Assembly (NCBI RefSeq): GCF_023055435.1 | Contig: NW_025963968.1 | Location: forward strand, 5,828,001-5,892,000 | Length of the DNA: 64,000 nucleotides | From: Haliotis rufescens | Taxonomy: Eukaryota | Reading direction: 5' to 3' | Shown here: positions 1,035-43,970 of the stretch, one piece after another | Position numbering within the stretch: the first letter of the stretch is position 1 | Layout of the letters: each line of letters starts with the position of its first letter | Program-made: the position numbers and the translations under genes | Notes under the pieces: model-generated | Databases searched by the model: none | Seen by the model: the letters and a program-made list of their open reading frames with translations, nothing else | What the model was told of the DNA's origin: nothing

Positions 1035-1894
1035 ATGAGGACGGCTATAATTCTACCTGCTGCCATCCTGGCCTGTTTGTGTGTCATAAGTGATGCCCGT
1101 TACATTCGTAAGTATTGAAGTCAATCGCATCGTCATACTCATTACCCGGAGCAAAAAAATATGAAATTTATTGATGTCCCTCTGAGTCGTTTAACTACTC
1201 ATTACCTCTAGCAAATATTGGGTATTCTTCCTTATTCCTGACTGTTGACCTCCTATCATCAGTGTGTTTTAACAATGATTCGTTGATGGAAATCGTTATG
1301 ATTTTATTGTCTCCATCCTTCTGGACTTTCATGGGCCATACACACTATCATGCATACCTCTGAGGAACTGACGGCAGAGGACCAATATAGCTGTTAAACC
1401 GTTGGCTGTTCAATCTCAAAACTTTGTTTCCGACATTGAAACAATGTGGGACACCCTTTCTTTTGTGATCGTAGAAGTCATGTTGCCGAAAACGCCATAC
1501 TCACTCACTCTAATACCTAGGCGATTTAATTCCAGGTGCCTCAGGATTGCAAGTGCAGCCCAGGACTGTCAAAGGGTATGCCAACCAACAACCAAGGGTG
1601 ATTATCATCAACCAAGACAAACCTAGGCAGGCTGCACGGGTACCTACTGCTGCACGATCTGGATACGCACCACGACACGGCAACGGATACAACAACTTCC
1701 TCAACGACTACCTCCTTGCTGATGCCCTTGATATCAACCATCCCGGTCTATTGCACGGCTTCAACCAGATTGCCTCCCCTTACGCCCCCTCCGCCCGTAC
1801 AGGTAGAAACAGCTACGACCCTCTCTACGCTGCGCTCATCTTGGACCAGCTTGACGCTCAGCCAATTGGAGCCAGCTCCGCCATCGTTGGTTAG
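1035..1894 (+). CDS. Family A secreted protein, copy A1 (143 aa); CDS join(1035..1107,1536..1894)
   Basis: ATG at 1035 follows acceptor ttttacAG (1008-1009). The 73-nt coding part reads MRTAIILPAAILACLCVISDARYI (signal-peptide-like). Donor GTAAGT 1108; acceptor ttccAG 1534-35 joins in phase 1 to ORF 1547..1894. AATAAA at 2003. Non-coding exon 1 would lie just upstream of the window. Confidence 0.9.
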
Positions 1895-2329
1895 ATGATG
1901 TGCTTTTAACGAAAAATGTTTTCTCGGAGTGACATGAGACGGATTTTTTTGAGTTTTGAGTTTTTGAGATTATGCTTTTGTGTCATGGTTTCTGTCTAAT
2001 GAAATAAAATGTTTAATTGATTACCTTGCATTCATTGTTATCGATTGTTCCACCACACTCACTGTATCGGTATGGTCTTGAATGTATGTATACATATGTA
2101 TATTTATATGGCACTACTTGTAAATGGGGTGAGAATATTAAAGAGAATTTCATCGCACCGAACACATCATACGAACATACACTACACACTATGAATCACA
2201 CAGCACATTACACATTATACATTATACATTAAGGTCATACACTACAAGTTAAGTCAAAGCACGTGATGCAGGGAAGACATATGTACATATGCTCACACTT
2301 ATAGACATAGATATGTTCAGTGCATTGGT

Positions 2330-2333
<4 letters not shown>

Positions 2334-2395
<62 letters not shown>

Positions 2396-2410
2396 AGATA
2401 TACATATAGA
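2334..2410. repeat. (TA)n/(TAGATA)n microsatellite
   Basis: Direct reading; much shorter in the A2 copy. Confidence 0.95.
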
Positions 2411-5029: not shown

Positions 5030-5113
5030 TGACGTCACTGTGTCACGATGCTCCCTGAAGGATGTCCGGCTGGCGTATAAAAGTATTCCTCATTTCTCTG
5101 GACACCATCATTC
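5030..5113 (+). promoter_or_regulatory. A2 core promoter: CRE palindrome TGACGTCA (5030), TCACGATG (5043), TATAAAA (5076), Inr-like TCATT (~5108)
   Basis: Motifs read directly. TATA-Inr spacing is about 32 bp, followed by a short exon with a GTGAG donor. The region is conserved in A3 and A4. Confidence 0.7.
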
Positions 5114-6204
5114 TCCAATTGTAGCCACAGAGCAGCAGCAACAGGTGAGCCAACTGTTTGTTATATTTTCTTTTCAATTTATCTTTTCTTGTAAACCGAC
5201 TGTGGAGTCTAATATCGCTTGTATACTTGATGTATTCACGTATCATGTTCTTCAGCATCCTTATATTATTGTGTATTAAGTACCTTTCCGTTAGAGATCG
5301 CCCCTTGGAAACAGCGGAAGGTCCGGGCTTCGATCCTTGGCCACGTCAAACCAAAATACACAAAAAAGATGATACTTGTTGTTACCCTGTCTGGCGCTCG
5401 GCATTAAAGGGCTAAAGCAAGGACTGGTCGGCTCAGAGTCAGTATACTGTGTCTGAGTGTGGTATTCATGTCAAGGGACGACCGGGTAGCCTGGTGGTTA
5501 AAGCTCATAAGAAATATCCATTGTGCGATTCAGACTACATCATAGGCATATCTTTATGGATCACTATCAGAAGTGATGATACCAGGTGTTCGCCCTAGGA
5601 TGTGCAGGGGCGGTCGGGTAGCCCAGTGGTTAAAACGTTCGCTCGTCACGCCGAAGGCCCGGGTTCGATTTCCGACATGGGTACAATGTGTGAATCCCAT
5701 TTCTGATGTTCCCCGCCGTGATATTGCTGGAATATTGCTAAAAGCGGCGTAAAACCATATTCACTCACTCACTATTCATGTTAAACTGCGGCAATGCCAG
5801 TGGGCTAGCACTATAAAATCGGCATTAGTCCGGACTAGTACAAGCAAATACACAGAAACACACACGTGCATACATGTCACTATATGAGTGCAATAATTTT
5901 GAAAGCGACATTAAACCCCATTTTACCTCACCACCTGTTCGGGAGATGTAAATATATGTGTGCGAATGTGTCATTTGTTAGCTTTCATAAAATCTCAGTC
6001 AGTCAATGTAAATAGTAAACTCTGAACCAAAGCAAATATAATAGTCGCCTAACCATAACTACACCTCAACGTGTGTTGTCATTATGTTTGTTGATATAAC
6101 TTGCATTAAATATTACTTTTCAATATACTATATCATCTTGCATTTAACATTATTGTTCGTTATACATTCACTTTTACAGAACAGAAATTACAACCACCCG
6201 AATC

Positions 6205-7064
6205 ATGAGGACGGCTATAATTCTACCTGCTGCCATCCTGGCCTGTTTGTGTGTCATAAGTGATGCCCGTTACATTCGTAAGTATTGAAGTCAATCGCAT
6301 CGTCATACTCATTACCCGGAGCAAAAAAATATGAAATTTATTGATGTCCCTCTGAGTCGTTTAACTACTCATTACCTCTAGCAAATATTGGGTATTCTTC
6401 CTTATTCCTGACTGTTGACCTCCTATCATCAGTGTGTTTTAACAATGATTCGTTGATGGAAATCGTTATGATTTTATTGTCTCCATCCTTCTGGACTTTC
6501 ATGGGCCATACACACCATCATGCATACCTCTGAGGAACTGACGGCAGAGGACCAATATAGCTGTTAAACCGTTGGCTGTTCAATCTCAAAACTTTGTTTC
6601 CGACATTGAAACAATGTGGGACACCCTTTCTTTTGTGATCGTAGAAGTCATGTTGCCGAAAACGCCATACTCACTCACTCTAATACCTAGGCGATTTAAT
6701 TCCAGGTGCCTCAGGATTGCAAGTGCAGCCCAGGACTGTCAAAGGGTATGCCAACCAACAACCCAGGGTGATTATCATCAACCAAGACAGACCTAGGCAG
6801 GCTGCACTGGTACCTACTGCTGCACGATCTGGATACGCACCACGACACGGCAACGGATACAACAACTTCCTCAACGACTACCTCCTTGCTGATGCCCTTG
6901 ATATCAACCATCCCGGTCTATTGCACGGCTTCAACCAGATTGCCTCCCCTTACGCCCCCTCCGCCCGTACAGGTAGAAACAGCTACGACCCTCTCTACGC
7001 TGCGCTCATCTTGGACCAGCTTGACGCTCAGCCAATTGGAGCCAGCTCCGCCATCGTTGGTTAG
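6205..7064 (+). CDS. Family A secreted protein, copy A2 (143 aa); join(6205..6277,6706..7064); non-coding exon 1 ~5108..5144
   Basis: Direct repeat of A1 offset by 5170 bp with the same splice sites. TATAAAA at 5076 and exon-1 donor CAG|GTGAGC at 5145. Differs from A1 by K>R, R>L and one silent change. Confidence 0.9.
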
Positions 7065-7624
7065 ATGATGTGCTTTTAACGAAACATGTTTTCTCGGAGT
7101 GACATGAGACGGAGTTTTTGAGTTTTGAGTTTTTGAGATTATGCTTTTGTGTCATGGTTTCTGTCTAATGAAATAAAATGTTTAATTGACTACCTTGCAT
7201 TCATTGTTATCGATTGTTCCACCACACTCACTGTATCGGTATGGTCTTGAATGTATGTATACATATGTATATTTATATCGCACTACTTGTAAATGGGGTG
7301 AGAATATTAAAGAGAATTTCATCGGATGGAACACATCATACAAACATACACTACACACTATGAATCACACAGCACATTACACATTATACATTATACATTA
7401 AGGTCATACACTACAAGTTAAGTCAATCTTACTCTCATAAATCAAAGCACGTGATGCAGGGAAGATATATGTACATATGCTCACACTTATAGACATAGAT
7501 ATGTTCAGTGCATTGGTATACATATATACATAGATATACATATAGATATGCCTATATTTTATTGACATTAGTGATAAATACTTTTCAATTGAAGGATATT
7601 CGCAGTAATATATTTATATACATA

Positions 7625-10600
7625 CCATACCATACACATACTTCATTACACACCATGCATTGCACTTAATTCATTACACACCCTGCATTACACATACTTC
7701 CTTACACACCATGCATTACACATACTTCCTTACACACCATGCATTACACATACTTCCTTACACACCATGCATTACACATACTTCCTTACACACCATGCAT
7801 TACACATACTTCCTTACACACCATGCATTACACATACTTCCTTATACACCATGCATTACACATACTTCCTTACACACCATGCATTACACATAATTCCTTA
7901 TACACCATCCATTACACATACTTCCTTATACACCATATAAGTCATTATGTGTAATGCATGGTGTGTAATGAATTTCGTGTAATGCATGGTGTGTAGTTAA
8001 TTATGTGTAATGCTTGGTGTGACATGAATTATATGTAATCCATGGTGTGTAATGAATTAAGTGTAATGCATGGTGTGTACTGAATTATGTGTAATGCACG
8101 GTGTGTAATGAATTATGTGGAATGCATGGTGTATAAGGAAGTATGTGAATGCTTTGTATATAATAAAGTATATGTAATCCATGGTGTGTAATGAAGTATG
8201 TGTAATGCATGGCGTGTAATGAATTATGTGTAATGCATGGTGTGTAGTGAATTAAGTTCAATGCATGGTGTGTAATGAATTATGTGTAATGCATGGTGTG
8301 TAATGAAGTATGTGTATGGCATGGTGTGTAATGAAATATGTGTAAATGCATGGTGTGTAATGAAGTATGTCCAGTGCATGGTGTGTAATGAATTATGTGT
8401 AATGCATGGTGTGTAATGAAATATGTGTATGGCATGGTGTGTAATGAATTATGTGTAATACATGGTGTGTAATAAAATATGTGTAATGCATGGCGTGTAA
8501 TTATATGAATGTTATGCATGGTGTTTAATGGTATAAGTGTAATGCATGGTTTTGTAGTGAATTATGTGTAATGCATGGTGGGTAATGAATTATGTGCAGT
8601 GCATGGTGTGTAATTATATGACTGTTATGCATGGTGTTTAATGATATAAGTGTAATGCATGGTGTGTAGTGAATTATGTGTTATGCATGGTGTTTAATGA
8701 TATAAGTGTAATGCATGGTGTGTAATGAATTATGTGCAGTGCATGGTGTGTAATGAATTATGTGTAATGCATGGTGTGTAATGAATTATGTGCAGTGCAT
8801 GATGTGTAATTATATGAATGTTATGCATGGTGTTTAATGATATAAGTGTAATGCATGGTGTGTAATGAATTATGTGTAATGCATGGTGTGTAATGAATTA
8901 TGTGTAATGCATGGTGTGTAGTGAATTATGTGTTATGCATGGTGTGTAATGAATTATGTGTAATGCATGGTGTGTAATGAATTATGTGTAATGCATGGTT
9001 TGTAATTATATAAGTGTTGTGCATTTGTGACACGTCATGCACTTCACATAATACAAAATGCACATTTCACCATACGCCAGATACCATATTTTACACATTA
9101 TGGACTACATGCCATGCATTAAACAGCATGTGCACCATGCACTACATTTCCCATCTCTCACAAACATTATCTTAACAGTTTTCCTGGAATGTGTATATAT
9201 AATATATATTACGTCAGAAGGTAAGTGATGTGTCAGTCGGACAGTGACAGCCAATATAGTTCCAACTGAAACCTTTTTCTTAGTTCACCAAAGGCTGATG
9301 GTTTGTTTGTTTGTTGTTTGACGCCGCACTCAACAATATTGCAGCTTTATGACGGCGGTGATCTAGTGTTTGACATCATTAGCATCGATCCACGCAGTTG
9401 GGATACGATGACATGCATCAACCAAGTCAGCGAGGCTGACCATCCGATCCCGTTAGTCGCCTCTTACGACAAGCATAGTCGCCTTTTACGGCAAGCATGG
9501 GTTCTGCCCCGCATCTTCATGGGTGCATGGTGTGTAATGCATTATGTGTAGTGCATGGTGTGTAATGAATTATGTGAAATGCATGGTGTATAATGAAGTA
9601 TGTGTAGTGCATGGTGTGTAATGAATAATGAGCAGTGCATGGTGTGTAGTGAATGTGTGATGCATGGTGTGTAATGAATTATGTGCAGTGCATGGTGTGT
9701 AATTATATGAATGTTATGCATGGTGTTTAATGATATAAGTGTAATGCATGGTGTGTAGTGAATTATGTGTTATGCATGGTGTGTAATGAATTATGTGTAA
9801 TGCATGGTGTGTAATGAATTATGTGTAATGCATGGTGTGTAATGAATTATGTGTAATGCATGGTGTGTAGTGAATTATGTGTTATGCATGGTGTGTAATG
9901 AATTATGTGTAATGCATGGTGTGTAATGAATTACGTGTAATGCATGGTGTGTAATGAATTATGTGTAATGCATGGTGTGTAGTGAATTATGTGTTATGCA
10001 TGGTGTGTAATGAATTATGTGTAATGCATGGTGTGTAATGAATTATGTGTAATGCATGGTGTGTAATTATATAAGTGTTGTGCATTTGTGACACGTCATG
10101 CACTTAACATTATACAAAATGCACATTCCACCATGCGCCAGATACCATATTTTACACATTATGGACTACATGCCATGCATTAAACAGCATGTGCACCATG
10201 CACTACATTTCCCATCTCTCACAAACATTATCTTAACAGTTTTCCTGGAATGTGTATATATAATATATATTACGTCAGAAGGTAAGTGATGTGTCAGTCG
10301 GACAGTGACAGCCAATATAGTTCCAACTGAAACCTTTTTCTTAGTTCACCAAAGGCTGATGGTTTGTTTGTTTGTTGTTTGACGCCGCACTCAACAATAT
10401 TGCAGCTTTATGACGGCGGTGATCTAGTGATTGACATCATTAGCATCGATCCACGCAGTTGGGATACGATGACATGCATCAACCAAGTCAGCGAGCCTGA
10501 CCATCCGATCCCGTAAGTCGCCTCTTACGACAAGCATAGTCGCCTTTTACGGCAAGCATGGGTTCTGCCCCGCATCTTCATGGGTGCATGGTGTGTAATG

Positions 10601-13460
10601 CATAATGTGTAGTGCATGGTGTGTAATGAATTATGTGAAATGCATGGTGTATAATGAAGTATGTGTAGTGCATGGTGTGTAATGAATAATGAGCAGTGCA
10701 TGGTGTGTAGTGAATGTGTGATGCATGGTGTGTAATGAATTATGTGCAGTGCATGGTGTGTAATGAATTATGTGTAATGCATGATGTATAATGAATTATG
10801 TGTAGTGCATGGTGTGTAATGAATTATGTGTAATGCATGGTGTGTAATTATATAAGTGTTGTGCATTTGTGACACGTCATGCACTTCACATTATACAAAA
10901 TGCACATTCCACCATACGCCAGATACCATATTTTACACATTATGGACTACATGCCATGCATTAAACAGCATGTGCACCATGCACTACATTTCCCATCTCT
11001 CACAAACATTATCTTAACAGTTTTCCTGGAATGTGTATATATAATATATATTACGTCAGAAGGTAAGTGATGTGTCAGTCGGACAGTGACAGCCAATATA
11101 GTTCCAACTGAAACCTTTTTCTTAGTTCACCAAAGGCTGATGGTTTGTTTGTTTGTTGTTTGACGCCGCACTCAACAATATTGCAGCTTTATGACGGCGG
11201 TGATCTAGTGATTGACATCATTAGCATCGATCCACGCAGTTGGGATACGATGACATGCATCAACCAAGTCAGCGAGGCTGACCATCCGATCCCGTTAGTC
11301 GCCTCTTACGACAAGCATAGTCGCCTTTTACGGCAAGCATGGGTTCTGCCCCGCATCTTCATGGGTGCATGGTGTGTAATGCATTATGTGTAGTGCATGG
11401 TGTGTAATGAATTATGTGAAATGCATGGTGTATAATGAAGTATGTGTAGTGCATGGTGTGTAATGAATAATGAGCAGTGCATGGTGTGTAGTGAATGTGT
11501 GATGCATGGTGTGTAATGAATTATGTGCAGTGCATGGTGTGTAATGAATTATGTGTAATGCATGATGTATAATGAATTATGTGTAGTGCATGGTGTATAA
11601 TGAATACTGTGCAATGCATGGTGTGTAGTGAATGTGTGATGCATGGTGTGTAATGCATTTTGTGTAGTGCATGGTGTGTAATGAATTATGTTAAATGCTT
11701 GGTGTGTAGTGAATGTGTGATGCATGGTGTGTAATGCATTATGTGTAGTGCATGGTGTATAATGAATAACAGTGCAGTGCATGATGTGTAGTGAATATGT
11801 GATGCATTATCTGTATTGCATTTTGTGTTATGATTATGCAGTGTATGATGGGTAGAGAATATGAAATACGTGGTGTGATGTATAATGCATGATGTGTAGT
11901 GCATTTCGTGTAATACATGATTGTAATGAAAGTTTTTGTACGGTGTGTAGTGCTTTGTTTGTAGTGCATACTTTGTAATTAATTACATATGTTGAATGGT
12001 GTGTAATTATTTATATATTATGCATGGCGTGTAATTAATTATATATATTATGCATGGTGTGTTATCAGTTATATATTATGCATGGTGTGTTATTAATTAT
12101 ATATTATGCATGGTGTGTAATTAATTATATATTAAGCAGGGTGTGTACTCAATTATATATGTTGGATGGTGTGTAATCAATTATATATTATGGATGGTGT
12201 GTAATTATTATATATTATGCATGGTGTGTAATTAATTATGTATTATGCATGGTGTGTAATCAATTATATATATATGCATGGTGTGTAATTTATTATATAT
12301 TATACCTCGTGTGTAATTAATCATATATTATGCATGGTGTGTAATCAATTATATATGTTGCATGGTGTGTTGTGCATGGTATGCAATTAATTATATATTA
12401 TGCATGGTGTGTAATCAATTATATATTATGCATGGTGTGTAATCAATTATATATTATTCATGGTGTGTTGTGCATGGTGTGTCGTGCATGTAAGTCATTA
12501 ATTATATATTATGCATGGTGTGTTGTGCATCGTGTGTCATGCATGTAAGTCATTAATCATATATTATGCATTGTGTGTTGTGCATGGTGTGTTGTGCATG
12601 GTGTGTCGTGCATGTAAGTCATTAATTATATATTTTGCATGGCGTGTTGTGCATGGTGTGTTGTGCATGGTGTGTCGTGCATGTAAGTCATTAATTATAT
12701 ATTTTGCATGGCGTGTTGTGCATGTGTGTCGTGCATGGTGTGTCGTGCATGTAAGTCATTAATTATATATTTTGCATGGTGTGTTGTGCATGGTGTGTTG
12801 TGCATGGTGTGTCGTGCATGTAAGTCATTAATCATAAATTATGCATTGTGTGTTGTGCATGGTGTGTTGTGCATGGTGAGTCGTGCATGTAAGTCATTAA
12901 TTATATATTTTGCATGGCGTGTTGTGCATGTGTGTCGTGCATGGTGTGTCGTGCATGTAAGTCATTAATTATATATTTTGCATGGCGTGTTGTGCATGTG
13001 TGTCGTGCATGGTGTGTCGTGCATGTAAGTCATTAATTATATATTTTGCATGGCGTGTTGTGCATGTGTGTCGTGCATGGTGTGTCGTGCATGTAAGTCA
13101 TTAATTATATATTTTGCATGGTGTGTTGTGCATGGTGTGTTGTGCATGGTGTGTCGTGCATGTAAGTCATTAATCATAAATTATGCATTGTGTGTTGTGC
13201 ATGGTGTGTTGTGCATGGTGAGTCGTGCATGTAAGTCATTAATTATATATTTTGCATGGCGTGTTGTGCATGTGTGTCGTGCATGGTGTGTCGTGCATGT
13301 AAGTCATTAATTATATATTTTGCATGGTGTGTTGTGCATGGTGTGTTGTGCATGGTGTGTCGTGCATGTAAGTCATTAATTATATATTTTGCATGGCGTG
13401 TAGATCAAAGCATGATTGGCTCCACGTTTCGTGCACGGTCCAAAGTGCATGGTGTGTAGT
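7625..13460. repeat. Satellite A (~28-bp TGCATGGTGTGTAATGAATTATGTGTAA, grading into a longer TGCATGGTGTGTCGTGCATGTAAGTCATTAATTATATATT variant)
   Basis: Tandem array; orientation flips at ~7940; related arrays at ~2650-2720 and ~19780-20990. Confidence 0.95.
9030..11367. repeat. Three copies of a ~500-bp cassette (unique segment plus short retroposon) embedded in satellite A
   Basis: Near-identical blocks starting ~9030, ~10090 and ~10870; duplicated ORFs 9303/11145 and 10098/10879. Confidence 0.9.
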
Positions 13461-13675: not shown

Positions 13676-14481
13676 CTAACCAACGATTGGCTGAGCGTCA
13701 AGTTGGTCCAAGATGAGCGCAGCGTAGAGAGGGTCGTAGCTGTTTCTACCTGTACGGGCGGAGGGGGCGTAAGGGGAGGCAATCTCGTTTAAGCCGTACG
13801 ATAGACCGGGATGGTTGATATCAAGGGCATCAGCAAGGAGGTAGTCGTTGAGGAAGTTGTTGTATCCGTTGCCGTGTCGTGGTGCGTATCCAGATCGTGC
13901 AGCAGTAGGTACCCGTGCAGCCTGCCTAGGTCTGTCTTGGTTGATGATAATCACCCTTGGTTGTTGGTTGGCATACCCTTTGACAGTCCTGGGCTGCACT
14001 TGCAATCCTGAAGCACCTGGAATTAAATCGCCTAGGTATTAGAGTGAGTGAGTATGGTTTACGACGTTTTCGGCAACATTGCAGCATTACTACTACGATC
14101 CCAACAAGAAAGGGTGTCCCACATTGTTCCCATGTCGGAATTTGAGTTTTGAGATCGAGCCAACGCTTTAACAGCTATACTGGTCATCTGTCGTCAGTTC
14201 CTCAGAGGTGTTCATGATGGTGTGTAGTCCCATAGGATGGAGACAATAAAATCTTAACAATTTCCATCAACGAATCATTGTTAAAACACACTGATGATAG
14301 GAGGTCGACAGTCGAAGAATACCCAATATTTGCCAGAGGTAATGTGTAGTTAAACGACGCTGAGGGACATTCATAAATTGTAAGACTGAATTCTCCTGAT
14401 ATACTTACGATTGTAACGGGCATCACTTATGACACACAAACAGACCAGGATGGCAGCAGGTAGAATTATAGCAGTCCTCAT
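13676..14481 (-). CDS. Family A secreted protein, copy A3 (137 aa); complement(join(13676..14016,14409..14481)); exon 1 ends 15057
   Basis: MRTAIILPAAILVCLCVISDARYN exon of 73 nt, GTAAGT donor, ttccAG acceptor, in frame with ORF 13676..14005. TATAAAA at 15119-15125 (-). Lacks the GASSAI hexapeptide of A1/A2. Confidence 0.9.
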
Positions 14482-15089
14482 GATTCGGGTGTTTTTAATT
14501 TCTGTTCTGTAAAAGTGATGCAAGATGTCAACAAAAATAATGGCAGCACAATTTCAGTCGTATTCGTTGTTAGGGTATCATTACATTTAACACTGACTGA
14601 GATTTTATGAAAGCTAACCAATTAATGACACATTCGCATACATATATTGATATTCAAAATTATTGCGCTTATAAAGCGACGTGCGTGTGTGTATGTATGT
14701 GTGGCTGCTTATACTATTCTGGACTAATGCCGACTTGATAGTGCGAGCCCACTGGGATTGACGCATTTTAACACGAATACCCCACTCAGACACAGTATAC
14801 TCCGAGCCGACCACGCCTTGTTTTAGCCCCTTAATGCCAAGTACCATCTTATCGAACCCCGGACCTTCCGCTCTCCAGAATGGCGCTCTACCACTAGACC
14901 ACGGAGGCGTTCTCTAACGAACAGGTCCTTAATACACAAAGGTTGTAGAAGAACATGACACATGAAAACTTCTAGTATACAAGCAATATTAGACTCCACA
15001 GTCGATTTACAAGAAAAGATAAATTGACAAGAAAATATAACAAACAGTTGGCTCACCTGTTGCTGCTGCTCTGTGGCTACAATTGGAGA

Positions 15090-15172
15090 ATGATGGTGTC
15101 CAGAGAAATGAGGAATACTTTTATACGCCAGCCGGACATCCTTCAAGGAGCATCGTGACACAGTGACGTAAC
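15090..15172 (-). promoter_or_regulatory. A3 core promoter (TTACGTCA, TCACGATG, TATAAAA)
   Basis: Reverse-complement homolog of the A2 promoter. Confidence 0.65.
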
Positions 15173-19760: not shown

Positions 19761-19779
19761 ATGTGGTGTGATATATAAT

Positions 19780-21353: not shown

Positions 21354-22500
21354 CTAACCAACGATTGGCTGAGCGTCAAGTTGGTCCAAGATGAGCGCAG
21401 CGTAGAGAGGGTCGTAGCTGTTTCTACCTGTACGGGCGGAGGGGGCGTAAGGGGAGGCAATCTGGTTGAAGCCGTACGATAGACCGGGATGGTTGATATC
21501 AAGGGCATCAGCAAGGAGGTAGTCGTTGAGGAAGTTGTTGTATCCGTTGCCGTGTCGTGATGCGTATCCAGATCGTGCAGCAGTAGGTACCCGTGCAGCC
21601 TGCCTAGGTCTGTCTTGGTTGATGATAATCACCCTTGGTTGTTGGTTGGCATACCCTTTGACAGTCCTCGGCTGCGCTTGCAACCCTGAAGCACCTTGAA
21701 TGAAAATGTTAAGCTATTAGAGTGAGTGAGTATGGTTTACGGCGTTTTCGGCAACATTGCAGCATTACTACAACGATCCCAACTAGAAAGAGTGTCCCAC
21801 ATTGTTCCCATGTCGGAATTTGAATTTTGAGATCGAACCAACGCTTTAACAGCTATACCGGTCCTCTGTCGTCAGTTCCTCAGAGGTGTTCATGATGGTG
21901 TGTAGTGCCAATGTAAGTCCCATAGGATGGAGAAAATAAAATCATTACAATTTCCATAAAAAATGCACGATTCTTAAAGAAATTTCAAAATAGACTCTTG
22001 AACATCTGTGGAGACTGCGCTAACGATATGGGTGAATACAAATATTTGTTTATTATTTTGATCTTTTTGACCACCCCGAGGCTTGTGACAATGCACAATA
22101 TTTCAAGAATCTTTTCACCTGTTAAAATTCACAATATTAGGCTCAAAATAGGCGCTTGGACAACTTGGAGACTGCGCAAATGATATGGGGAATAAAAATA
22201 ACGTTTTTCGATTTTGAAAGATTTTTTACTTCTTAAAATACAAAATTTTAGGCTCAAATAGACTCTTGGACATACTGATGATAGGAGTTCAACAGTCAGG
22301 GATAAAGAAGAATACCCAATATTTGCCGGAGGTAATGTATAGTTTAACGACTCTGAGGGACATTCATGAAATGTATATTATTATTCCGGGTAACAAGTAT
22401 GACGATGCGATTGACTTCAATACTTACGAATGTAACGGGCATCACTTATGACACACAAACAGGCCAGGATGGCAGCAGGTAGAATTACAGCAGTCCTCAT
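21354..22500 (-). CDS. Family A secreted protein, copy A4 (137 aa); complement(join(21354..21694,22428..22500)); exon 1 ends 23160
   Basis: MRTAVILPAAILACLCVISDARYI 73-nt exon, GTAAGT donor, ttcaAG acceptor, in frame with ORF 21354..21683. TATAAAA at 23222-23228 (-). Confidence 0.9.
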
Positions 22501-23191
22501 GATTCGGATGGTTGTAATTTCTGTTCTGTAAAAGTGAATGTATAATAAAACATTAATGTTAAATGCAAGATGATATAGTATATTGAGAATGTATGTCTAT
22601 TGCAAGTTATGTCAACAAAAATAATGGCAGCACAATATCAGTCGTATTCGTTGTTAGGCAACCATTACATTTTCTTTGGTTAACACTGACTGAGATTTTA
22701 TGAAAAACTAATGAGACATTCGCACACATTTATTTATATTCAAAATCATTGCACTTATAAAGCGACGTGCGTGTGTGTATGTGTGGCTGCTTATACTAGA
22801 CCGGGCTAATGCCGAGTTTATAGTGCTAGCCCACTGAGATGCCATGCCGCAGTTTTACATGAATACCCCACCTGACACAGTATAATGACCACTCCTTGTT
22901 TTAGCCCCTTAATGCCAAGTACCATCTTTTATCGTCTTTTGGTGTGTCGCGGCCGGGATCGAACCCCTGACCTTCCGCTCTCCGGGCGGACGTTCTACCA
23001 CAAGACAACGAAGGCGTTCTCTAACGAACAGGTACTTAATAAACCATAATATAAGGATGCTGAAGAGTATACATCAAGTATACAAGCGATATAAGAATCT
23101 ATATTCGATTTACAAGAAAAGATAAATTGACAAGAAAATATAACAAACAGTTGGCTCACCTGTTGCTGCTGCTCTGTGGCTACAATTGGAG

Positions 23192-23275
23192 AATGATGGT
23201 GTCCAGAGAAATGCGGAATACTTTTATACGCCAGCCGGACATCCATCAAGGAGCATCGTGACACAGTGACGTAAC
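23192..23275 (-). promoter_or_regulatory. A4 core promoter (TTACGTCA, TCACGATG, TATAAAA)
   Basis: Reverse-complement homolog of the A2 promoter. Confidence 0.65.
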
Positions 23276-26700: not shown

Positions 26701-27060
26701 AGGGTAGCAGTTATGATGTATGTATGTGCCTTTATGTGAGAAGGGTAGCAGATGATTGTGTGTATGTGCCTGTATGTGAGAAGGGTAGCAGATGATTGTG
26801 TGTCTGTTCCTGTATATGATAACGGTAGATAATTGTGTGTATGTTCCTGTATGTAAGAAGGATAGCAGATGATTGTGTGTATGTTCCTGTATTTAAGAAG
26901 GATAGCAGATGATTGTGTGTATGTTTCTCTATGTAAGAAGGGTAGCAGATGATTGTGTGTATGTGCCTGTATGTGAGAAAGGTAGCGATAATTGTCTGGT
27001 TTGTATGTTCCTGCATATAAGGGTAGCAGATAGCTGTTTGCGTATGACCCTGTATGTAAG
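23760..27060. repeat. Satellite B' (~40-bp GAAGGGTAGCAGATGATTGTGTGTATGTTCCTGTATGTAA)
   Basis: Tandem array, variant of satellite B, upstream of A4. Confidence 0.95.
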
Positions 27061-28075: not shown

Positions 28076-28330
28076 TAGTGTTTATCGCCGCACTCACCAA
28101 TATTCAAGCAAAATGACAGCGGTCTGTAAATAATCGAGTCTGGACGAGACAATCCAGTGATTGATATCATGAGCATCGATCATCGCAATTGGGATACGAT
28201 GACATGCATCAACCAAGTCAGCGAGCCTGACCACCCGATTCTGTTAGTCGCCTCTTACGACAAGCATAGTCGCCTTTTACGGCAAGCATGTGTTGCTGAG
28301 GAACTATTCTACCCCGGGTCTTCACGGGTA
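28076..28330 (-). mobile_element. Short non-autonomous retroposon without tRNA head; copies 9301-9524, 10362-10586, 11143-11367 (-), partial 44140-44293 (+)
   Basis: 5' CCCGTGAAGACCCGGGGTAGAAT...TGCTTGTCGTAAGAGGCGACTAAC; its 3' tail AATATTG(C/T)TGAGTGCGGCG..AAAC(AAAC)n resembles that of the SINEs. Confidence 0.7.
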
Positions 28331-29560
28331 TGTAAGAACACACAATATGTAACTGTTTTGTAAGAACACACAATATTTACATGTATGTAAGAACACACAA
28401 TATGTACATGTATGTAAGAACACACAATATGTAACTGTATGTAAGAACACACAATATGTAACTGTATGTAAGAACACACAATATGTAACTGTATGTAAGA
28501 ACACACAATATGTAACTGTATGTAAGAACACACAATATGTCACTGTATGTAAGAACACACAATATGTAACTGTATGTAAGAACACACAATATGTAACTGT
28601 ATGTAAGAACACACAATATGTAACTGTATGTAAGAACACACATTATATAACTGTAAGAACATAAAATGTGTAACTGTATGTAAGAACACACAATACGTAA
28701 CTATGTAAGAACACACAATATGTAACTGAAAGTAACAACACACAAGATGTATGTAAGAAAACAAAATATGTAACTGAAAGTAACAACACACGAGATGTAA
28801 CTGTATGTAAGAACACACAAGATGTAACTGCATGTAACAACACACAAGATGTAATTGAATGTAAGAACACACAATATGTAACTGAAAGTAACAACACACA
28901 ATATGTAACTGTATGTAAGAACAATCAATATGTAACTGAAAGTAACAACACACAAGATGTAACTGTATGTAACAACACACCAGATGTGGCTGTATGTAAG
29001 AAAACAAAATGTGTAACTGTGTGTGAGAACACGCAATGTGTAACTGTATGTAAGAACACACAATATGTAACTGCATGTAACAACACACAAGATGTGGCTG
29101 TATGTAAGAACACATAAGATGTCACTGCATGTAACAACACACAAGATGTAACTGAATGTAAGAACACACAATATGTAACTGAAAGTAACAACACACAATA
29201 TGTAACTGTATGTAAGAACACACAATACGTAACTGAATGTAAGAACACACAATATGTAACTGTATGTAAGAACAATCAATATGTAACTGAAAGTAACAAC
29301 ACACAAGATGTAACTGTAGGTAACAACACACCAGATGTGGCTGTATGTAAGAAAACAAAATGTGTAACTGTGTGTGAGAACACGCAATGTGTAACTGTAT
29401 GTAAGAATATACAATATGTACATGAATGTAAGAACGCACAAGAAGTGGCACAATATGTAACTGTGAGAACATATAACATATAACTGCATGTAAGAATACA
29501 ATATGTGACTGTATGTAAGAACACAATATGTGACTATGCATAAATATACAATATGTGATT
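28330..29560. repeat. Satellite C (27-bp GTAACTGTATGTAAGAACACACAATAT)
   Basis: Tandem array; 9-aa periodicity in spurious ORFs. Confidence 0.95.
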
Positions 29561-29741: not shown

Positions 29742-29799
29742 CTGTGTGTGTGTGTGTGTGCGTGTGTGTGTGCGTGTGCGTGTGTGTGTGTGTGTGTGT
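29742..29799. repeat. (GT)n microsatellite
   Basis: Direct reading. Confidence 0.95.
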
Positions 29800-30815: not shown

Positions 30816-33601
30816 CTATCCCGCGAGAGGCATAAGAGGTAAGTCAAGAGCCTCGCGGAGATAGAGGTCATAAGGATTGAACTGTTGTGAACCAGCGGGG
30901 TATGCTGCTGGTTCTACTGGTGGCTTTGGTGCTTGTTCTACTAGTGTTGTTGCTGCTGGTTCCGCTGCCTGTGTTGCTGCCGGAGTTGCTGCTGCGTCTG
31001 TTGCTGCCTTTGCTGCTGGTACTGCTTCCAGTACTGCTGGTTGTAGTGGTGGTTCTGCTGTCGGTGCTGATGCTGGTTCCGCTGCCAGTGCTGCTTCCTT
31101 GGGACTGTTAGCGACATTTGGTTTACCGGGAGCACCTGACGCTACGTGGCCAGGGAAGGGAGGAAGGTCCAGTGCCTCAGCGAGTTGAAGGGAGTATAAG
31201 CGATCAAACTTGTTTTGGTAACTTGCACCTTGAGCACCCTTCGAAAAGTAAGGCGCTTGGAAGGCAGACGTGGCAGCTGGAGACTGAGCTGCACCCCGGC
31301 TGGCAGGTGCTCCAAGAGTTTGAGCGAGCTGGTGCAAGTTCTGATGTCCACCATAGTGCGGAAGCTCCATTTCAGCGAGCATGCTGAGTCTCAACATTTT
31401 GTCGTAGTATCTGCCTTCAGGTCCAGCAGGGAAGAGACCAGATGCAAAACTTACCGGGGAGTTGGGTTCTGGAGCGGGTACCTGTGGTGAGGCTCCTGTC
31501 TTAGTTGCTGGAACCGGGAATGAGGAAGAAGCGGTGGCAGAGACTACGTTTGAAGCAGGGGCTGGAGCGAGAGGGGCTTGAGCCTGGACAGGAACGGAAA
31601 CAGGGGTAGGCGCATCGATTGCGCTTGAAGCAGGGGCTGAGACGAGAGGGGCTTGAGCCTGGGCAGGGGCGGAAGCAGCACGAGCATTAGGGTAGTCCTC
31701 CTTGATGATAATGATAGTATTATGGGGGAAGGGTTGGTGTCTAGGTGTGTTCCTGCCGTATCCTTGCTCGATCTGGGACCCGTAGTAATCAGGTTGGCCA
31801 TTGGCAATGACATACTGAGGCTGTGTGTTTGGAGGGTTCTCATACACCGTGGGTTGGACTCTTGAGGGACCAGAGGGCGTGACTATGGGGGTATATGTCG
31901 GAGCTTGGGGAGAGACCTTTTGAGGTCGTGGAGCTGGGGGATAGACATTATTTTGAGCTCTTGGAGCTGGTGGATAGACGTTTTGAGCTCTTGGAGCTGG
32001 GGGATAGACATTATTTTGAGCTCTTGGAGCTGGTGGATAGACAATTTGAGCTCTTGGAGTTGGGGGATAAACGTTTTGAGCTCTTGGAGCTGGGGGGTAG
32101 ACGGTTTCAGCTCTTGGAGCTGGGGGATAGACATTTTGAGCTCTTGGAGCTGGGGGATAGACATTTTGAGCTCTTGGAGTTGGGGGATAGACATTTTGAG
32201 CTCTTGGAGCTGGGGGGTAGACAGTTTCAGCTCTTGGAGCTGGGAGATAGACATTTTGAGCTCTTGGAGCTGGGGGATAGACATTTTGAGCTCTTGGAGT
32301 TGGGGGATAGACATTTTGAGCTCTTGGAGCTGGGGGGTAGACAGTTTCAGCTCTTGGAGCTGGGGGATAGACATTTTGAGCCCTTGGAGCTGGGGGATAG
32401 ACATTTTGAGCCCTTGGAGCTGGAGGATAGACATTTTGAGCTCTTGGAGCTGGGGGATAGACATTTTGAGCTCTTGAAGCTTGGGGATAGACGTTTCGAG
32501 CTCTTGGAGCTGGTGGATAGACGTTTTGAGGTCGTGGAGCTGAGGGATAGACGGTTTGAGCCCGTTGAGCTTGTGGTGCTGGGGGATATACTTTCTGATT
32601 TGGTGCAACTGGTTGGGTTTTTCGAGTAAGGGCAACGGGCCTAACTTGAGTGGACTTGATGACGTTTCTTCGGAGTGTTTCAGTTGGGTGGTATATAATC
32701 TGACTTTCTAAATTTTCGCGTCTGGGATTTACTAAATTGTAAGAGTTGACTCCAGATTTTGAACCTGGAAGAAAACCAAAATGCTATATTAACACAAGCG
32801 GCAAACCCTTTCCAAAATCATACAAATCTCTGCTGAAAGCAGAGTCCATTGTATGTTTATGAATCACTGTCAAATTGTGATAATACCAGGTGTTCGTGAA
32901 GGGTTTAGCGTACCCTGCTCCACCGGGGGAACCCGTTGTCACTTTAACTGTGTATTTGACAGATAATTAAATGCAAATGTTAATACTACTAAATCTTCTG
33001 AGAACATTAAATTTTCTCCGTGACCTGCTCGCACACACACAAGACGGTTACAGCTGGCCCACACAATGATGAGTGAGGGAGTGAGTGAGTATGGTTTTAC
33101 GCCGCTTTTAGCAATATTCCAGTAATATTCTGGGACACCAGAAATGAGCTCCACACATTGTACCCATGTCGGGAATCGAACCCGGGTCTTCGGCGTGACG
33201 AGCGAACGCTTTAACCACTAGGCTACCCGACCGCCACCACACAATGATGAAAATTCTTAATCGACTCGAAAAAATATAGGAAAACTTAATTATAGTTATA
33301 TATTGACATGCTTACCCATTTCAAAAGCATCGCTCAGAGAGTGATTGAGTGAGTGAGTGAGATGGGTTTAAAGCCGCTTTGAACGGGACTTAGACAGATG
33401 TATGGCAACAGCATTAAGCATTCCATCGTATGCCAGCTGGATATATGGGCAACTCAGGAAACTGTATGCTCTTGAAGACACGTATTATGTCAGACTCTGT
33501 TATGTTACCTCCATATCAACGTACTTACCAATTACGAAAGCGTCGCTCAAAAGACAGCAACAGCCTAGTACGGCCATGGCCAAGAGCATGGTGGCTCTCA
33601 T
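30816..33601 (-). CDS. Family B secreted Pro/Ala/Gln-rich repeat protein B1 (673 aa); complement(join(30816..32764,33529..33601)); probable non-coding exon 1 ending 35644
   Basis: 73-nt exon MRATMLLAMAVLGCCCLLSDAFVI, donor GTAAGT, acceptor ttccAG. The frame is open from 32762 through about 22 NVYPPAPRAQ decapeptides into ORF 30816..31847, whose GTG start is internal. Carries three L-[AR]-E-[AM]-L-[DE]-L-P-like motifs. Confidence 0.88.
33073..33237 (-). mobile_element. tRNA-SINE family 1 in B1 intron 2 (others 44991-45153, partial ~41752-41870)
   Basis: A/B boxes, (CTCA)n tail, 13-bp TSD CACACAATGATGA. Confidence 0.85.
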
Positions 33602-33788
33602 AGTATATATATTGTTGTCCGAAGAGCATTCTGAAAAGCAAAGACAATATATATCATTATATTCCAATAAACCTGACATACAGGTAGCAAGGCATTTAGT
33701 CTTTATTCACAAATGTGGAATAGAATCAAATATTGAAGCGAAGTGCTCAAAAGAGGTCTGAACAATCCTTCAGGGTTTTTTTTGTTAT

Positions 33789-33824
<36 letters not shown>

Positions 33825-34394: not shown

Positions 34395-34479
34395 TTTTTC
34401 AAGGAGAAGCTATCATAACGATCACTGCATCTGTGCAAAGAACCCTGCAGCAAACCTGCAGAATCCTTCTCTTGAATAA

Positions 34480-35643: not shown

Positions 35644-35750
35644 CAATGACCGTTGTTTGTCTGTTGCTGTCCAAAGCATAAATGCTTCCTGTTTGAGAGA
35701 ATCACGGGGGTTAATAAACCTTCCTCGTCACCCGCAAATGGTCATCGTGA
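35644..35750 (-). promoter_or_regulatory. B1 putative promoter and non-coding exon 1 (TCACGATG 35743-35750, TTTATTAA 35711-35718, donor GTGAGT)
   Basis: Aligns by eye with the B2 promoter/exon 1 (gaactcac-ca ... ggggtt[at]ata[at]acct ... tcatcgtga). Confidence 0.55.
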
Positions 35751-38489: not shown

Positions 38490-41400
38490 CAGTACTATGT
38501 ATTGTATGAGTCGTGTCTACAGCTGTAGGTATTGTATATGTAGTGAGTCATGTTTACAGCTATAGGTATTGTACATGTAGTGAGTCGTGTATACAGCTAT
38601 AGGTAATGTACATGCAGTGAGTCGTGTATACAGCTATAGGTATTGTACATGTAGTGAGTCGTGTGTACAGCTATAGGTATTGTACATGTAGTGAGTCGTG
38701 TATACAGCTATTGGTAGTGTACATGTAGTGAGTCGTGTATACAGCTATAGGTATTGTACATGTAGTGAGTCGTGTATACTGCTATAGGTATTGTACATGT
38801 AGTGAGTCGTGTATACAGCTATAGGTATTGTACATTTAGTGAGTCGTATGTACAGCTATAGGCATTGTACATGCAGTGAGTCGTGTATACAGCTATAGGT
38901 AGTGTACATGTGGTGAGTGGTGTATACAGCTATAGTTATTGTACATGTAGTGAGTCGTGTATACAGCTATAGTCATTGTACATGTAGTGAGTCGTGTATA
39001 CAGCTATTGGTAGTGTACATGTAGTGAGTCGTGTATACAGCTATAGGTATTTACATGTAGTGAGTCGTGTATACAGCTATTGGTATTGTACATGTAATGA
39101 GTCGTGTATACAGCTATAGGTAATGTACATGTAGTGAGTCGTGTATACAGCTATTGGTATTGTACATGTAGTGAGTCGTGTATACAGCTATAGGTATTTA
39201 CATGTAGTGAGTCGTGTATACAGCTAAAGGTATTGTACATGTAGTGAGTCGTGTATACAGCTATAGGTATTGTACATGTAGTGAGTCGTGTAAACAGCTA
39301 TAGGTTTTGTACATGTAGTGAGTCGTGTATACAGCTATAGGTATTGTACATGTAGTGAGACGTGTATACAGCTATAGGTATTGTACATGTAGTGAGTCGT
39401 GTATACAGCTATAGGTATTGTACATGTTGTGAGTCGTGTGTACAGCTATAGGTATTGTACATGTAGTGAGTCGTGTATACAGCTATAGGTATTATAGATA
39501 CAGCTATGGGTATTTTACATGTAGTGAGTCGTGTTTACAGCTATAGGTATTGTGCATGTAGTGAGTCGTGTATACAGCTATTGGTATTGTACATGTAGTG
39601 AGTCGTGTATACAGCTATAGGTATTTACATGTAGTGAGTCGTGTATACAGCTAAAGGTATTGTACATGTAGTGAGTCGTGTATACAGCTATAGGTATTGT
39701 ACATGTAGTGAGTCGTGTAAACAGCTATAGGTTTTGTACATGTAGTGAGTCGTGTATACAGCTATAGGTATTGTACATGTAGTGAAACGTGTATACAGCT
39801 ATAGGTATTGTACATGTAGTGAGTCGTGTATACAGCTATAGGTATTGTACATGTTGTGAGTCGTGTGTACAGCTATAGATATTGTACATGTAGTGAGTCG
39901 TGTATACAGCTATAGGTATTATAGATACAGCTATGGGTATTTTACATGTAGTGAGTCGTGTTTACAGCTATAGGTATTGTGCATGTAGTGAGTCGTGTAT
40001 ACAGCTCTAGGTATTGTACATGTAGTGAGTCGTGTATACTGCTATAGGTATTGTACATGTAGTGAGTCGTGTATACTGCTATAGGTATTGTACATGTAGT
40101 GAGTCGTGTAAACAGCTATAGATATTGTACATTTAGTTAGTCGTGTATACAGCTATAGGCATTGTACATGTAGTGAGTCGTGTATACAGCTATAGGTAGT
40201 GTACATGTAGTGAGTCGTGTATACAGCTATAGTTATTGTACATGTAGTGAGTCGTGTATACAGCTATAGTCATTGTACATGTAGTGAGTCGTGTGTACAG
40301 CTATAGGTCTTTACATTTAGTGAGTCGTGTATACAGCTATAGTCATTGTACAGGTAGTGAGTCGTGTATACAGCTATAGGTATTGTACATGTAGTGAGTC
40401 GTGTATACAGCTATTGATACAGTATATGTAGTGAGTCGTGTAAACAGCTATAGGTATTGTACATGTAGTGAGTCGTGTATACAGCTATAGGTATTGTACA
40501 TGTAGTGAGTCGTGTATACAGCTATATGTATTGTACATGTAGTGAGTCGTGTATACAGCTATAGGTATTGTACATTTAGTGAGTCGTGTATACAGCTATT
40601 GATATAGTATATGTAGTGAGTCGTGTATACAGCTATAGTCATTGTACATGTAGTGAGTCGTGTGTACAGCTATAGGTCTTTACATGTAGTGAGTCGTGTA
40701 TACAGCTATATTGTACATTTAGTGAGTCGTGTATACAGCTATAGTCATTGTACAGGTAGTGAGTCGTGTATACAGCTATAGGTATTGTACATGTAGTGAG
40801 TCTTGTATACAGCTATGGGTATTGTACATGTAGTGAGTCGTGTATACAGCTATTGATATAGTATATGTAGTGAGTCGTGTATAAAACTATAGGTATTGTA
40901 CATGTAGTGAGTCGTGTATACAGCTATAGGTATTGTACATGTAGTGAAACGTGTATACAGCTATAGGTATTGTACATGTAGTGAGTCGTGTATACAGCTA
41001 TAGGTATTGTACATGTAGTGAGTCGTGTATACAGCTATTGATATAGTATATGTAGTGAGTCGTGTATACAGCTATAGTCATTGTACATGTAGTGAGTCAT
41101 GTGTACAGCTATAGGTCTTTACATGTAGTGAGTCGTGTATACAGCTATATTGTACATTTAGTGAGTCGTGTATACAGCTATAGTTATTGTACATGTAGTG
41201 CGACGTGTATACAGCTATAGTCATTGTACATGTAGTGAGTCATGTGTACAGCTATAGGTCTTTACATGTAGTGAGTCGTGTATACAGCTAAATTGTACAT
41301 GTAGTGAGTCGTGTGTACAGCTATAGGTCTTTACATGTAGTGAGTCGTGTATACAGCTATATTGTACATGTAGTGAGTCGTGTGTACAGCTATAGTTATT

Positions 41401-41710
41401 GTACATGTAGTGCGACGTGTATACAGCTATAGGTATTGTACATGTAGTGAGTCGTGTATACAGCTATAGGTATTGTACATGTAGTGAGTCGTGTATACAG
41501 CTATATGTATTGTACATGTAGTGAGTCGTGTATACAGCTATAGATATTGTACATGTAGTGAGTCGTGTATACAGCTATTGATATAGTATATGTAGTGAGT
41601 CGTGTATACAGCTATAGGTATTGTACATGTAGTGAATCGTGTATACACCTATTGATATAGTATATGTAGTGAGTCGTGTATACAGCTATAGGTATTGTAC
41701 ATGTAGTGAG
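38490..41710. repeat. Satellite D (37-bp TGTACATGTAGTGAGTCGTGTATACAGCTATAGGTAT)
   Basis: Tandem array of roughly 85 units. Confidence 0.97.
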
Positions 41711-42322
41711 TATCATTTGGGGCGCGTATACAGCTTGAAATGGGGAAAGCGTGAGTGAGTGCATGGGTTGGATTCTACGCTGCTTTTAGCAAGATTCCAG
41801 CAATATCACGACAGGGTACATCAGAAATGGGTTCACGCAGTGTACCCATGTGGGGATCAAACCCATGCCTTTTGGAGTTATATCAGCACGCACCAACTCA
41901 GCATGAAGCCCTAAGTGACGTACGTCTCCATTGTTTCCCGCTTGGGTGACACCCACAATCAAGGGGATGGTTGAGAAAAGCCTTGAAACAATCGGGGTGA
42001 GTCTGGGATTTCAATCCTCGACAACATATAAGTATATTTGTTTAGTTGATGACATATATAATACCATCACAGTGACCTCGAACGCTACATACGCCAACAG
42101 AAATTCCACCTTGAGTTGTAGATGTACAGATAAACAAATATTTTCTTTTGTTCATAGTGCTTTTATTGTCAGAAACAACACCAACGATGACCTTATGACA
42201 TGTCAACCTCTGAACAAATAATTAATACAGATGCATCTATCTGAGACGTATCTGAACCAATCATCCTGAGCTAACTTGTCGAAAGCTGAAGCATCGACCA
42301 GTCATGTGAAGGCAAGATCACA

Positions 42323-43970
42323 TCACACGCGAGGCACAGAGGGCTTGGGGGGTAGGTCAAGAGCCTCTCGGAGATGCATGGAGTAGAGGTCATGAGGGCT
42401 GTAACCATGGGGACCTCCAGCTGGTTTAGCTGCTGGTGATGCTGCCTGTTCTGCTGTTGGTTTTGGTGCTGCTGGGTGGCCTTGTTGTGGAGGAAGGTCT
42501 AGTGCCTCAGCGAGGTGCAGTGAGAACAAGCGGTCGTACTGGTTCTGGTGACCAAGGGAAGAGGACTTGGAAGCTTGATACTGAGCCGCACCCTTGCTGG
42601 CAGGTGCTCCAAGGGTTTCAGCGAGCTGGTGCAAGTTGTGATGTCCTCCATAGTGAGGAAGCTCCATTTCAGCGAGCATGTTGAGTCTCAACATGTTGTT
42701 GAGGGCGTCGTATCCACGTTGGGAAGCACCAGGGTAGAGGCCAGATGCAGCCCCTGCTGGAGAGTTGGGTTCTGGGATGGGAACCCGTGGGGAGGCTGCT
42801 GTTTTAGCTGGCGCAGATGCTGGGTCAGCCAATGGATTCGCAGGGGAGCGGGAAAAAGGGTCTGCTGAGAAAGGGGCAGGGAAAGGGTCTGCAAAGTTGG
42901 GGCCAGTGGCAGAGAAAGGGCCTAAAGAGATCTGGGAAGGGGAAGGGGCAAATGGGGCTTGAGCCTGGTCAGGGGCGGAAGCACCACGGGGATTAGGGGA
43001 GTCCTCTTTGATGATGATGATAGTATTCTGGGGAAAGGGTTGGTGTCTGAGTGTGTTTCTGCTGGAAGCGCGGATAGGCTGAGTGTCGTATCCTTGCTCG
43101 GTCTGGGAACCGTAGTGATCAGGTAGGCCATTGGCAACGACATACTGGGGCTGTGGAGCTGGGACATAGACTTTTTGAGCTTGTTGGGCTGGGGGATAGA
43201 CGTTTTGAGTTTGTGGGGCTGGGGGATAGACTTTCTGAGCTTGTGGGGCTGGGGGATAGACGTTCTGAGCTTGTGGGGCTGGGGGATAGACTCTCTGAGT
43301 TTGTGGGGCTGGGGGATAGACTTTTTGAGTTTGAGGGCCTCGGGGGTAGACGTTTTGAGTTTGTGGGGCAAGGGGATAGACATTTTGAGTTTGTGGGGCT
43401 GGAGGGTAGACATTTTGAGTTTGTGGGGCTGGAGGGTAGACTTTTTGAGTTTGTGGGGCTTGTGGGGTTGGTCGAGCAGGAGCCACCTGTTTGACTTGAG
43501 TGGACTTGATGGCTTTTCTTTGGAGTGTTTTAGTGGGATTGTAGATAATCTGTCTTCCAAATCTTGGGGTTTGGACCCTGCGATTTATCAGCTGATTGTA
43601 AGGATTGATAATATATGGTGAACCTGCAAGAAAACCAAAAGTCCATTTAAATACAAGCGACGAAACCCTTTTCCATATGGGTCCGACATTTTGATATTCC
43701 CCTTTTGGGTGAGTGAGTGAGTGAGTGAGTGAGTGAGTGAGTGAGTGAGTGAGTGAGTTGGGTTTAAAGCCGCTTTGAACGGAACTCAGACAGTATCATG
43801 GCCACATCATGAAGCAGTTCCGTCGCATGCCAGCTGGATCTATGGACAACTCAGGAAACAGTATGCTCTTGATGACACATGTTAGGAATGTACGTACCAA
43901 TAACGAAAGCGTCGGTCACAAGACAGCAACATCCTAGTACGGCCATGGCCAACATGATGACGGCTCTCAT
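42323..43970 (-). CDS. Family B secreted Pro/Ala/Gln-rich repeat protein B2 (457 aa); complement(join(42323..43623,43898..43970)); exon 1 ends 45221
   Basis: 73-nt exon MRAVIMLAMAVLGCCCLVTDAFVI, donor GTACGT, acceptor tgcAG, in frame with ORF 42323..43486. Ten QNVYPPAPQT-type repeats. Clear paralog of B1 (shared QPQYV.ANG.PD.YGSQ, MLRL.MLAEMELPHYGGH.NLHQLA). TATATAAA at 45289-45296 (-). Confidence 0.9.
43708..43758. repeat. (GAGT)n microsatellite (expanded SINE tail remnant) in B2 intron 2
   Basis: Direct reading; shorter homolog at ~33347-33360 in B1. Confidence 0.9.

Follow-up and report, generated by a model that had tools for sequence, protein, structure and literature searches.

Evidence for a single abalone gene family of two branches, with a putative role of its secreted proteins in an unmineralised organic coat

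In the abalone Haliotis rufescens, a stretch of 64,000 nucleotides (RefSeq assembly GCF_023055435.1, contig NW_025963968.1, positions 5,828,001 to 5,892,000, forward strand; hereafter the window, whose numbering is used unless contig positions are specified) contains six intact genes of two types, A and B, which, as judged from sequence, very probably share a common ancestor. Whether rapidly evolving, low-complexity secreted proteins are homologous can seldom be decided from their amino acid sequences, and at this locus it is gene structure, motif order and promoter element together that likely make the link between the two types. The overall interpretation that we moderately favour is that A and B would constitute two old branches of one abalone family, encoding predicted secreted, mostly disordered proteins that would build an unmineralised organic coat. 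The window genes (A1 and A2 on the plus strand; A3, A4, B1 and B2 on the minus strand) belong to a family of 13 genes within approximately 90 kb, comprising nine A and four B copies in the order B4 (+), B3 (-), seven A (+), two A (-), B1 (-) and B2 (-), flanked by a chitin synthase exon on one side and by a gene resembling that of the shell protein GAAP on the other. Each window gene consists of a short predicted non-coding exon 1, a signal exon (exon 2) and one long exon 3, the A proteins measuring 137-143 amino acids (aa) and the B proteins 434-673 aa. Searches of the genome with four family proteins returned matches confined to the 90-kb locus, the match counts being lower bounds, and relatives were found in Haliotis alone, namely A in H. 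asinina and B in H. cracherodii and H. rubra.

The coding length from the ATG to the GT donor of the signal exon is 73 nucleotides (nt) in all six window genes (A1 1035-1107, A2 6205-6277, A3 14481-14409, A4 22500-22428, B1 33601-33529, B2 43970-43898), as the initial annotation of this DNA had proposed, and in 13/13 genes of the cluster. The signal sequences quoted in that annotation are likewise present in 6/6 genes, with the small correction that A3 ends in ..ARYN. Exon 2 as a whole (A1 1010..1107 and A2 6180..6277 on the plus strand; A3 14409..14506, A4 22428..22525, B1 33529..33630 and B2 43898..43998 on the minus strand) is 98 nt long in A, 102 nt in B1 and 101 nt in B2, and these lengths differ because its untranslated (UTR) part differs (25 nt in A1, 29 nt in B1 and 28 nt in B2); in A1 the coding part specifies a predicted signal peptide and ends at a phase-1 donor. 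The junction 6277->6706 (GT..AG) of A2 is joined in contigs of three of the four runs searched, the RNA nature of which is a guess. In the coding part of exon 2 the A copies are identical at 70-73/73 nt and B1 and B2 at 64/73, so near-identical within each type that the six genes amount to one independent comparison, while A and B agree at 36-38/73 nt with only 5-7/24 third codon positions identical, which is at background; for this reason the A/B split would appear to be old. At the protein level, the signal exons of A and B align without gaps at scores of 43-56; in each of the nine pairs at most one of 10,000 region-wise shuffles attains such a value, and two neighbouring signal peptides used as controls, which are few, score 4-13. 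The phase of the signal exon, which had also been put forward as a sign of shared ancestry, carries little weight, because phase-1 introns are over-represented around residue 20 of secreted animal proteins in general (PMC1626468) and because two unrelated neighbours, one of them the GAAP-like gene, likewise possess signal exons that end in phase 1, with lengths of 61 and 85 nt (the scan covered phase 1 only).

A second line of evidence is provided by the predicted promoters. The 8-mer TCACGATG precedes the predicted TATA box in 13/13 genes, at a spacing of 25 nt in 11 genes, 24 nt in B1 and 13 nt in one A copy, and the family promoters hold 13 of the 15 TCACGATG sites in 264 kb; an 8-mer matching A at an equal offset was encountered in 123/20,000 random windows. 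In A2 the promoter and exon 1, predicted from the letters of the DNA, occupy 5043..5144 on the plus strand (8-mer 5043-5050, TATA 5076-5083, initiator-like position 5108, donor after 5144), and the corresponding predicted regions on the minus strand are 15057..15158 in A3 (8-mer 15158-15151, TATA 15125), 23160..23261 in A4 (8-mer 23261-23254, TATA 23228), 35644..35750 in B1 (8-mer 35750-35743, TATA-like 35718) and 45221..45329 in B2 (8-mer 45329-45322, TATA 45296, initiator-like 45267), exon 1 of A1 lying just left of the window. Alignment of promoter plus exon 1 rises above background for A versus B2 (0-1/1,000 shuffles) and weakly so for A versus B3 (6-29/1,000). The common exon-1 ending that had been noted earlier is present in A2, A3, A4 and B2, but B1 differs, and as evidence of ancestry it adds little, the stretch from TATA box to exon-1 donor being by itself not significant (43-155/1,000). 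The shared element is newly described here and represents a testable cis-element. In one A copy, at contig position 5807392, 12 nt are missing from the interval that separates TCACGATG from the TATA box, which makes this copy a natural spacing variant. The A promoters (5032-5075) also possess a TGACGTCA-type palindrome just 5' of the shared 8-mer, altered in three copies, and TGTCCGGC occurs at differing places in the promoters of A and B2-B4 (5032-5075, 45322-45342).

The third line of evidence lies in exon 3, where A and B have in common an ordered series consisting of the signal, a motif of the form IIIx[QE]DxP (the III motif), helix motif 1 with a His/Gly tail, and helix motif 2. In A1 (coding part 1536..1894, plus strand, 143 aa) these occupy 1601-1624 (III motif), 1682-1741 (motif 1) and 1805-1864 (motif 2), and the other A proteins are encoded at 6706..7064 (A2, plus strand, 143 aa), 13676..14016 (A3, minus strand, 137 aa) and 21354..21694 (A4, minus strand, 137 aa). 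B1 (30816..32764, minus strand, 673 aa) contains about 21 decapeptides with a Tyr-Pro-Pro (YPP) core at 32591-31917, the III motif at 31712-31689 and helix motifs at 31415-31356, 31217-31158 and 30893-30834; B2 (42323..43623, minus strand, 457 aa) contains 10 decapeptides at 43441-43148, the III motif at 43018-42995 and helix motifs at 42712-42653, 42547-42488 and 42406-42347. The A1 model is identical to the H. rufescens RefSeq protein XP_046340768.1 (143 aa), and the B2 and B3 models are equal to XP_046340773.2 (457 aa) and to a RefSeq protein of 434 aa, respectively. Profiles built from B for the III motif, the His/Gly tail and helix motif 2 match A in the same order in 3/3 A proteins, with totals of 41-50 as against null maxima of 16-26 and none of 1,500 shuffles reaching them. 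The mature regions align at levels attained by at most 2/1,000 shuffles in 14 of the 20 A-B pairs, as compared with 180-437/1,000 for the GAAP control against H. rufescens A. Furthermore, H. asinina A reads IIIKED, like B (0-1/1,000 shuffles), and one H. asinina A copy shares with B a Gly where the two exons meet. The III motif was correctly reported for 6/6 window genes, except that the QDKP form is found in A1 alone and A2-A4 read QDRP; on its own, as proof of ancestry, it is weak for H. rufescens A, since the B profile is matched there by 10-17/1,000 shuffles, and in the reverse test the values are 12-34/300 in five B proteins and 227/300 in B1.

Several observations weigh against this interpretation. 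Six of the 20 mature-region pairs fail (22-120/1,000), namely all four that involve B1 and two that involve H. rubra B; GAAP, an unrelated control, attained 3-10/1,000 against H. asinina A; promoter plus exon 1 of A versus B1 is not significant (73-152/1,000); and the motif windows, as well as the TCACGATG 8-mer, were picked after inspection of the sequences. Searched at E<=0.001 against 1.84 billion representatives, the A profile retrieved no B protein, nor did the B profile retrieve any A protein at E<=10 in a set of 7,997 scored candidates. Comparison of A and B by HHalign, which the initial annotation had suggested as a check, gave probabilities of 74% (E 2.7e-5) and 30% (E 5.4e-4) from shallow profiles, and similarity corrected for composition stands above the shuffled background, but not at significance in the whole-database search. 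The predicted helices of A are not amphipathic (moment 0.06-0.10 versus 0.28-0.37 in B), and the GAAP-like neighbour lacks the 8-mer, with no TCACGA site within 7.8 kb upstream of its start codon. It could be argued that A and B, both low-complexity and secreted, have no common origin and came to lie in a single neighbourhood of matrix genes, or that they share merely a borrowed 5' cassette of promoter, exon 1 and signal exon, the exon-3 motifs being convergent. This view would be in keeping with the absence of a database-scale match, with the background level of the third codon positions, with the same phase-1 plan in an unrelated secreted gene next door and with the fact that the strongest single signals come from 5' features. 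However, the exon-3 motifs are collinear and surpass all 1,500 shuffles without any contribution of the signal peptide, and H. asinina A bridges the two forms of the III motif, so that we regard this alternative as improbable. The common ancestry of A and B is thus supported, mainly by evidence other than the phase-1 exon and the IIIxxDxP motif that had initially been invoked.

If A and B form one family, the question arises as to how their sizes came to differ. The earlier estimate of a 5-fold difference applies to B1 alone, the measured ratios ranging from 3.0 to 4.9, and the proposal that A lacks the decapeptide array and one helix motif is correct in that A has two motifs and no array, but accounts for just part of the gap, as the array and the third motif with its linker cover 63% (B1), 47% (B2), 38% (B3) and 43% (B4) of the extra length. 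The remaining B excess consists of longer linkers and of a second, Asp-Pro-Phe repeat in 1-10 copies; in B3, B4 and H. rubra B this repeat, of 19 residues, follows the III motif and precedes motif 1. Asp-Pro-Phe repeats of some B proteins are also recognised by the profile of A motif 2 and may represent copies of the motif that have decayed. Exon 3 contains all of these changes, in support of the notion of modular change inside a single exon. As to its direction, A had been regarded as a minimal version, and the possession by A of two helix motifs and no array, as compared with three motifs and an array in B, would fit its derivation by reduction from a B-like ancestor. Nevertheless, a duplication specific to B seems to have produced its motifs 2 and 3, which are closest to each other (mean score 54.7, against 34.4 and 26.7 for their similarity to A motif 2), and the array varies from two weak decapeptides in H. 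rubra B to 4-21 units in H. rufescens. Since these two features make gain in B the simpler account, it is likely, in a comparison that has no outgroup and is therefore unrooted, that B gained repeats and a motif, and the reduction of A appears highly implausible. The locus would thus present a contrast between repeat growth in the B branch and gene amplification in the A branch. In the latter, six plus-strand copies recur with a tandem period of 5,167-5,170 bases, and adjacent units differ at 3-18 per approximately 2,500 positions in four of five comparisons and at more in the fifth. It is unlikely that these tandem units are an assembly artefact, because adjacent units differ in sequence and because H. 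asinina is also multi-copy, with three A models.

With regard to function, the mature A and B chains contain no Cys, have an isoelectric point of 8.4-9.8 and are rich in Pro, Ala and Gln, and both types begin with a hydrophobic N-terminus that is a predicted signal peptide. AlphaFold models have a pLDDT (predicted local distance difference test) of 46-50 for A and B, with helices at the motifs alone. No Pfam family scores above cut-off for A, B1 or B2, a cuticle or chitin-binding domain included, and PDB sequences yielded no match at E<=1; in the ESM Atlas the best feature score for A was 0.85, which serves as a lead only, and no usable match was obtained for B. The search of the whole library also brought up two repeat proteins, one bacterial and cadherin-like and the other unnamed (E 1e-4 and 5e-4, as sums over 4-5 stretches), and both matches were dismissed as fortuitous. 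Taken together, these properties point to secreted structural matrix proteins as the probable nature of A and B. The A proteins of H. rufescens and H. asinina, although only 58-60% identical overall, do not differ at any of 25 consecutive residues across motif 1, and this invariance suggests that the motif may be a binding surface. Contig depth on the A exons, a poor measure, amounts to 50,000-240,000 in one pair of runs and 0-4 in the other pair, which is no more than a hint that A expression is strong and restricted.

The more specific proposal, that the product is an unmineralised coat of periostracum or cuticle type, is tentative, and of the candidate sites we favour periostracum or cuticle in the first place and foot, larval or radular material in the second. 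According to the proposed mechanism, A and B would be made together and in bulk for the periostracum or another epithelial cuticle, and the short conserved motifs would act as stickers for chain assembly. B would have grown within exon 3 by means of YPP decapeptides, Asp-Pro-Phe repeats and a duplicated motif 2, and A would have kept its small size and multiplied as tandem units of 5.17 kb, to the benefit of gene dosage. In B, hydroxylation and cross-linking would affect the tyrosines and prolines, in the manner of the tanned coatings of molluscs. The locus offers concrete candidates for the unmineralised secreted layers of abalone.

It is rather doubtful, though deserving of consideration, that the same family instead provides an adhesive or protective secretion of foot or skin, or the matrix of larval shell, operculum, radula or jaw. 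The RefSeq label of B2 is 'adhesive plaque matrix protein-like', and B resembles mussel foot protein 1 (Mefp-1/mfp-1), a DOPA (3,4-dihydroxyphenylalanine)-bearing protein of the byssus cuticle (PMC7018715), in that both combine a non-repetitive part with a tandem array of period 10 that has a Tyr-Pro-Pro core. The mussel repeat is further matched in B1 by Ala four places before in 15/19 YPP units and by Lys or Arg five places on in 18/19. On the other hand, the second tyrosine of the mussel repeat occurs in 0/36 YPP units, Lys makes up just 2-4% of B, the repeats number 2-21 and B2-B4 have no basic residue at the +5 place. No mussel or other non-Haliotis relative of B was found in searches that used its non-repetitive half. 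At best B may work like mfp-1 by analogy, and we do not class it as a member of that family. A bolder version of the coat proposal, which we consider quite unlikely, envisages that abalone independently evolved a coating resembling mussel varnish, in which long B chains with Tyr-Pro-Pro decapeptides would be linked via the common helical sticker motif by a short, gene-amplified A partner, all co-activated by one promoter element 25 nt before the TATA box; if true, a gastropod would possess a tanned coating or adhesive of two components that has not been described before, and its regulatory switch would already be available for study.

The adult shell itself is the remaining candidate. The GAAP-like gene (62064..63733, minus strand), situated 18 kb right of B2, is not a family member and encodes a protein of 415 aa that is rich in Ala, Gly and Ser, contains Gly-Asn repeats and matches H. 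laevigata CLC_21 at its N-terminus. GAAP is a major H. laevigata shell protein (PMC6003135) and is expressed in the nacre-forming mantle of H. asinina (PMC4944945, PMC2989941). Such proximity, together with a basic, low-complexity composition like that of many Haliotis shell proteins, could suggest that A and B are likewise matrix proteins of the mineralised adult shell, nacreous or prismatic. However, five A/B motif strings gave no match in 27 supplement files of the H. laevigata adult shell proteome (PMC6003135), nacre and prism peptide and protein tables among them, in which the GAAP control was found; the search relied on exact strings in another species, with cells read to 400 characters, and a diverged orthologue could have been missed. 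The shells of that proteome were bleached or sand-blasted (PMC6003135), a treatment that would remove an outer organic coat. A further supplement (PMC5400390) contained neither the A/B motif strings nor the positive control, and its negative result is therefore uninformative. The absence of the motifs from the cleaned-shell proteome and of TCACGA from the 7.8 kb upstream of the GAAP-like start codon are the reasons why an unmineralised layer is favoured, and the missing 8-mer means that co-regulation with nacre genes is not established. A place in the mineralised shell is therefore very unlikely. The same proteome result would also fit a foot, skin or larval product, as would the presence of a chitin synthase exon approximately 50 kb left of the cluster (contig positions 5731660-5733615, plus strand), which contains EDR and QRRRW motifs and matches Pfam PF03142 at E 1.7e-14.

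Secreted-protein gene clusters of this kind are ordinary in molluscs. The repetitive low-complexity abalone mantle proteins GAAP/HasCL10contig2, Has-vm2 and Has-tsfgr1 resemble A and B in being lineage-restricted and in combining a signal peptide with repeats and predicted disorder (PMC2989941, PMC2034539, PMC6003135, PMC4944945), and the basic, low-complexity, predicted disordered chain with a predicted signal peptide is a feature that A and B have in common with Haliotis shell proteins (PMC2989941). The GAAP-like neighbour has the same plan of two coding exons, and A and B differ in that their motifs were not found in the adult shell proteome tables (PMC6003135). Has-vm2 was considered as a possible B and rejected because its repeats, as described in the source, differ (PMC2034539). 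Searches by accession, motif string and topic, with most subscription journals outside their scope, found no paper on the family, and this abalone-restricted family is apparently undescribed.

A comparable architecture is known from the chorion and cuticle gene clusters of insects, in which short secreted proteins are encoded by a signal exon and a long exon in near-identical tandem copies, with a short promoter element near the TATA box; no sequence relation of these clusters to A and B is shown.

Beyond the family genes, minisatellite arrays with units of 28, 43, 40, 27 and 37 nt extend over 7619-13401, 15663-20988, 23764-29525, 38503-41711 and 57159-58290, respectively. The 28-nt array is inverted from about 7940 onwards, in the interval that separates plus-strand from minus-strand A copies, and a similar flip occurs in the 43-nt array near 16275; such intergenic arrays may have been drivers of the duplications and of the inversion. 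Intron 1 of A contains very common short interspersed repeats (5345-5500, 5580-5800), to which thousands of contigs from other loci match. On the minus strand at contig position 5910532 there is another gene whose product is predicted to be secreted; its signal exon, of phase 1, measures 85 nt, and its open frame is mucin-like, rich in Ser/Thr and devoid of Pfam matches. A weak match to C-type lectins (PF00059, E 0.01, below cut-off) is located on the minus strand approximately 45 kb right of the window.

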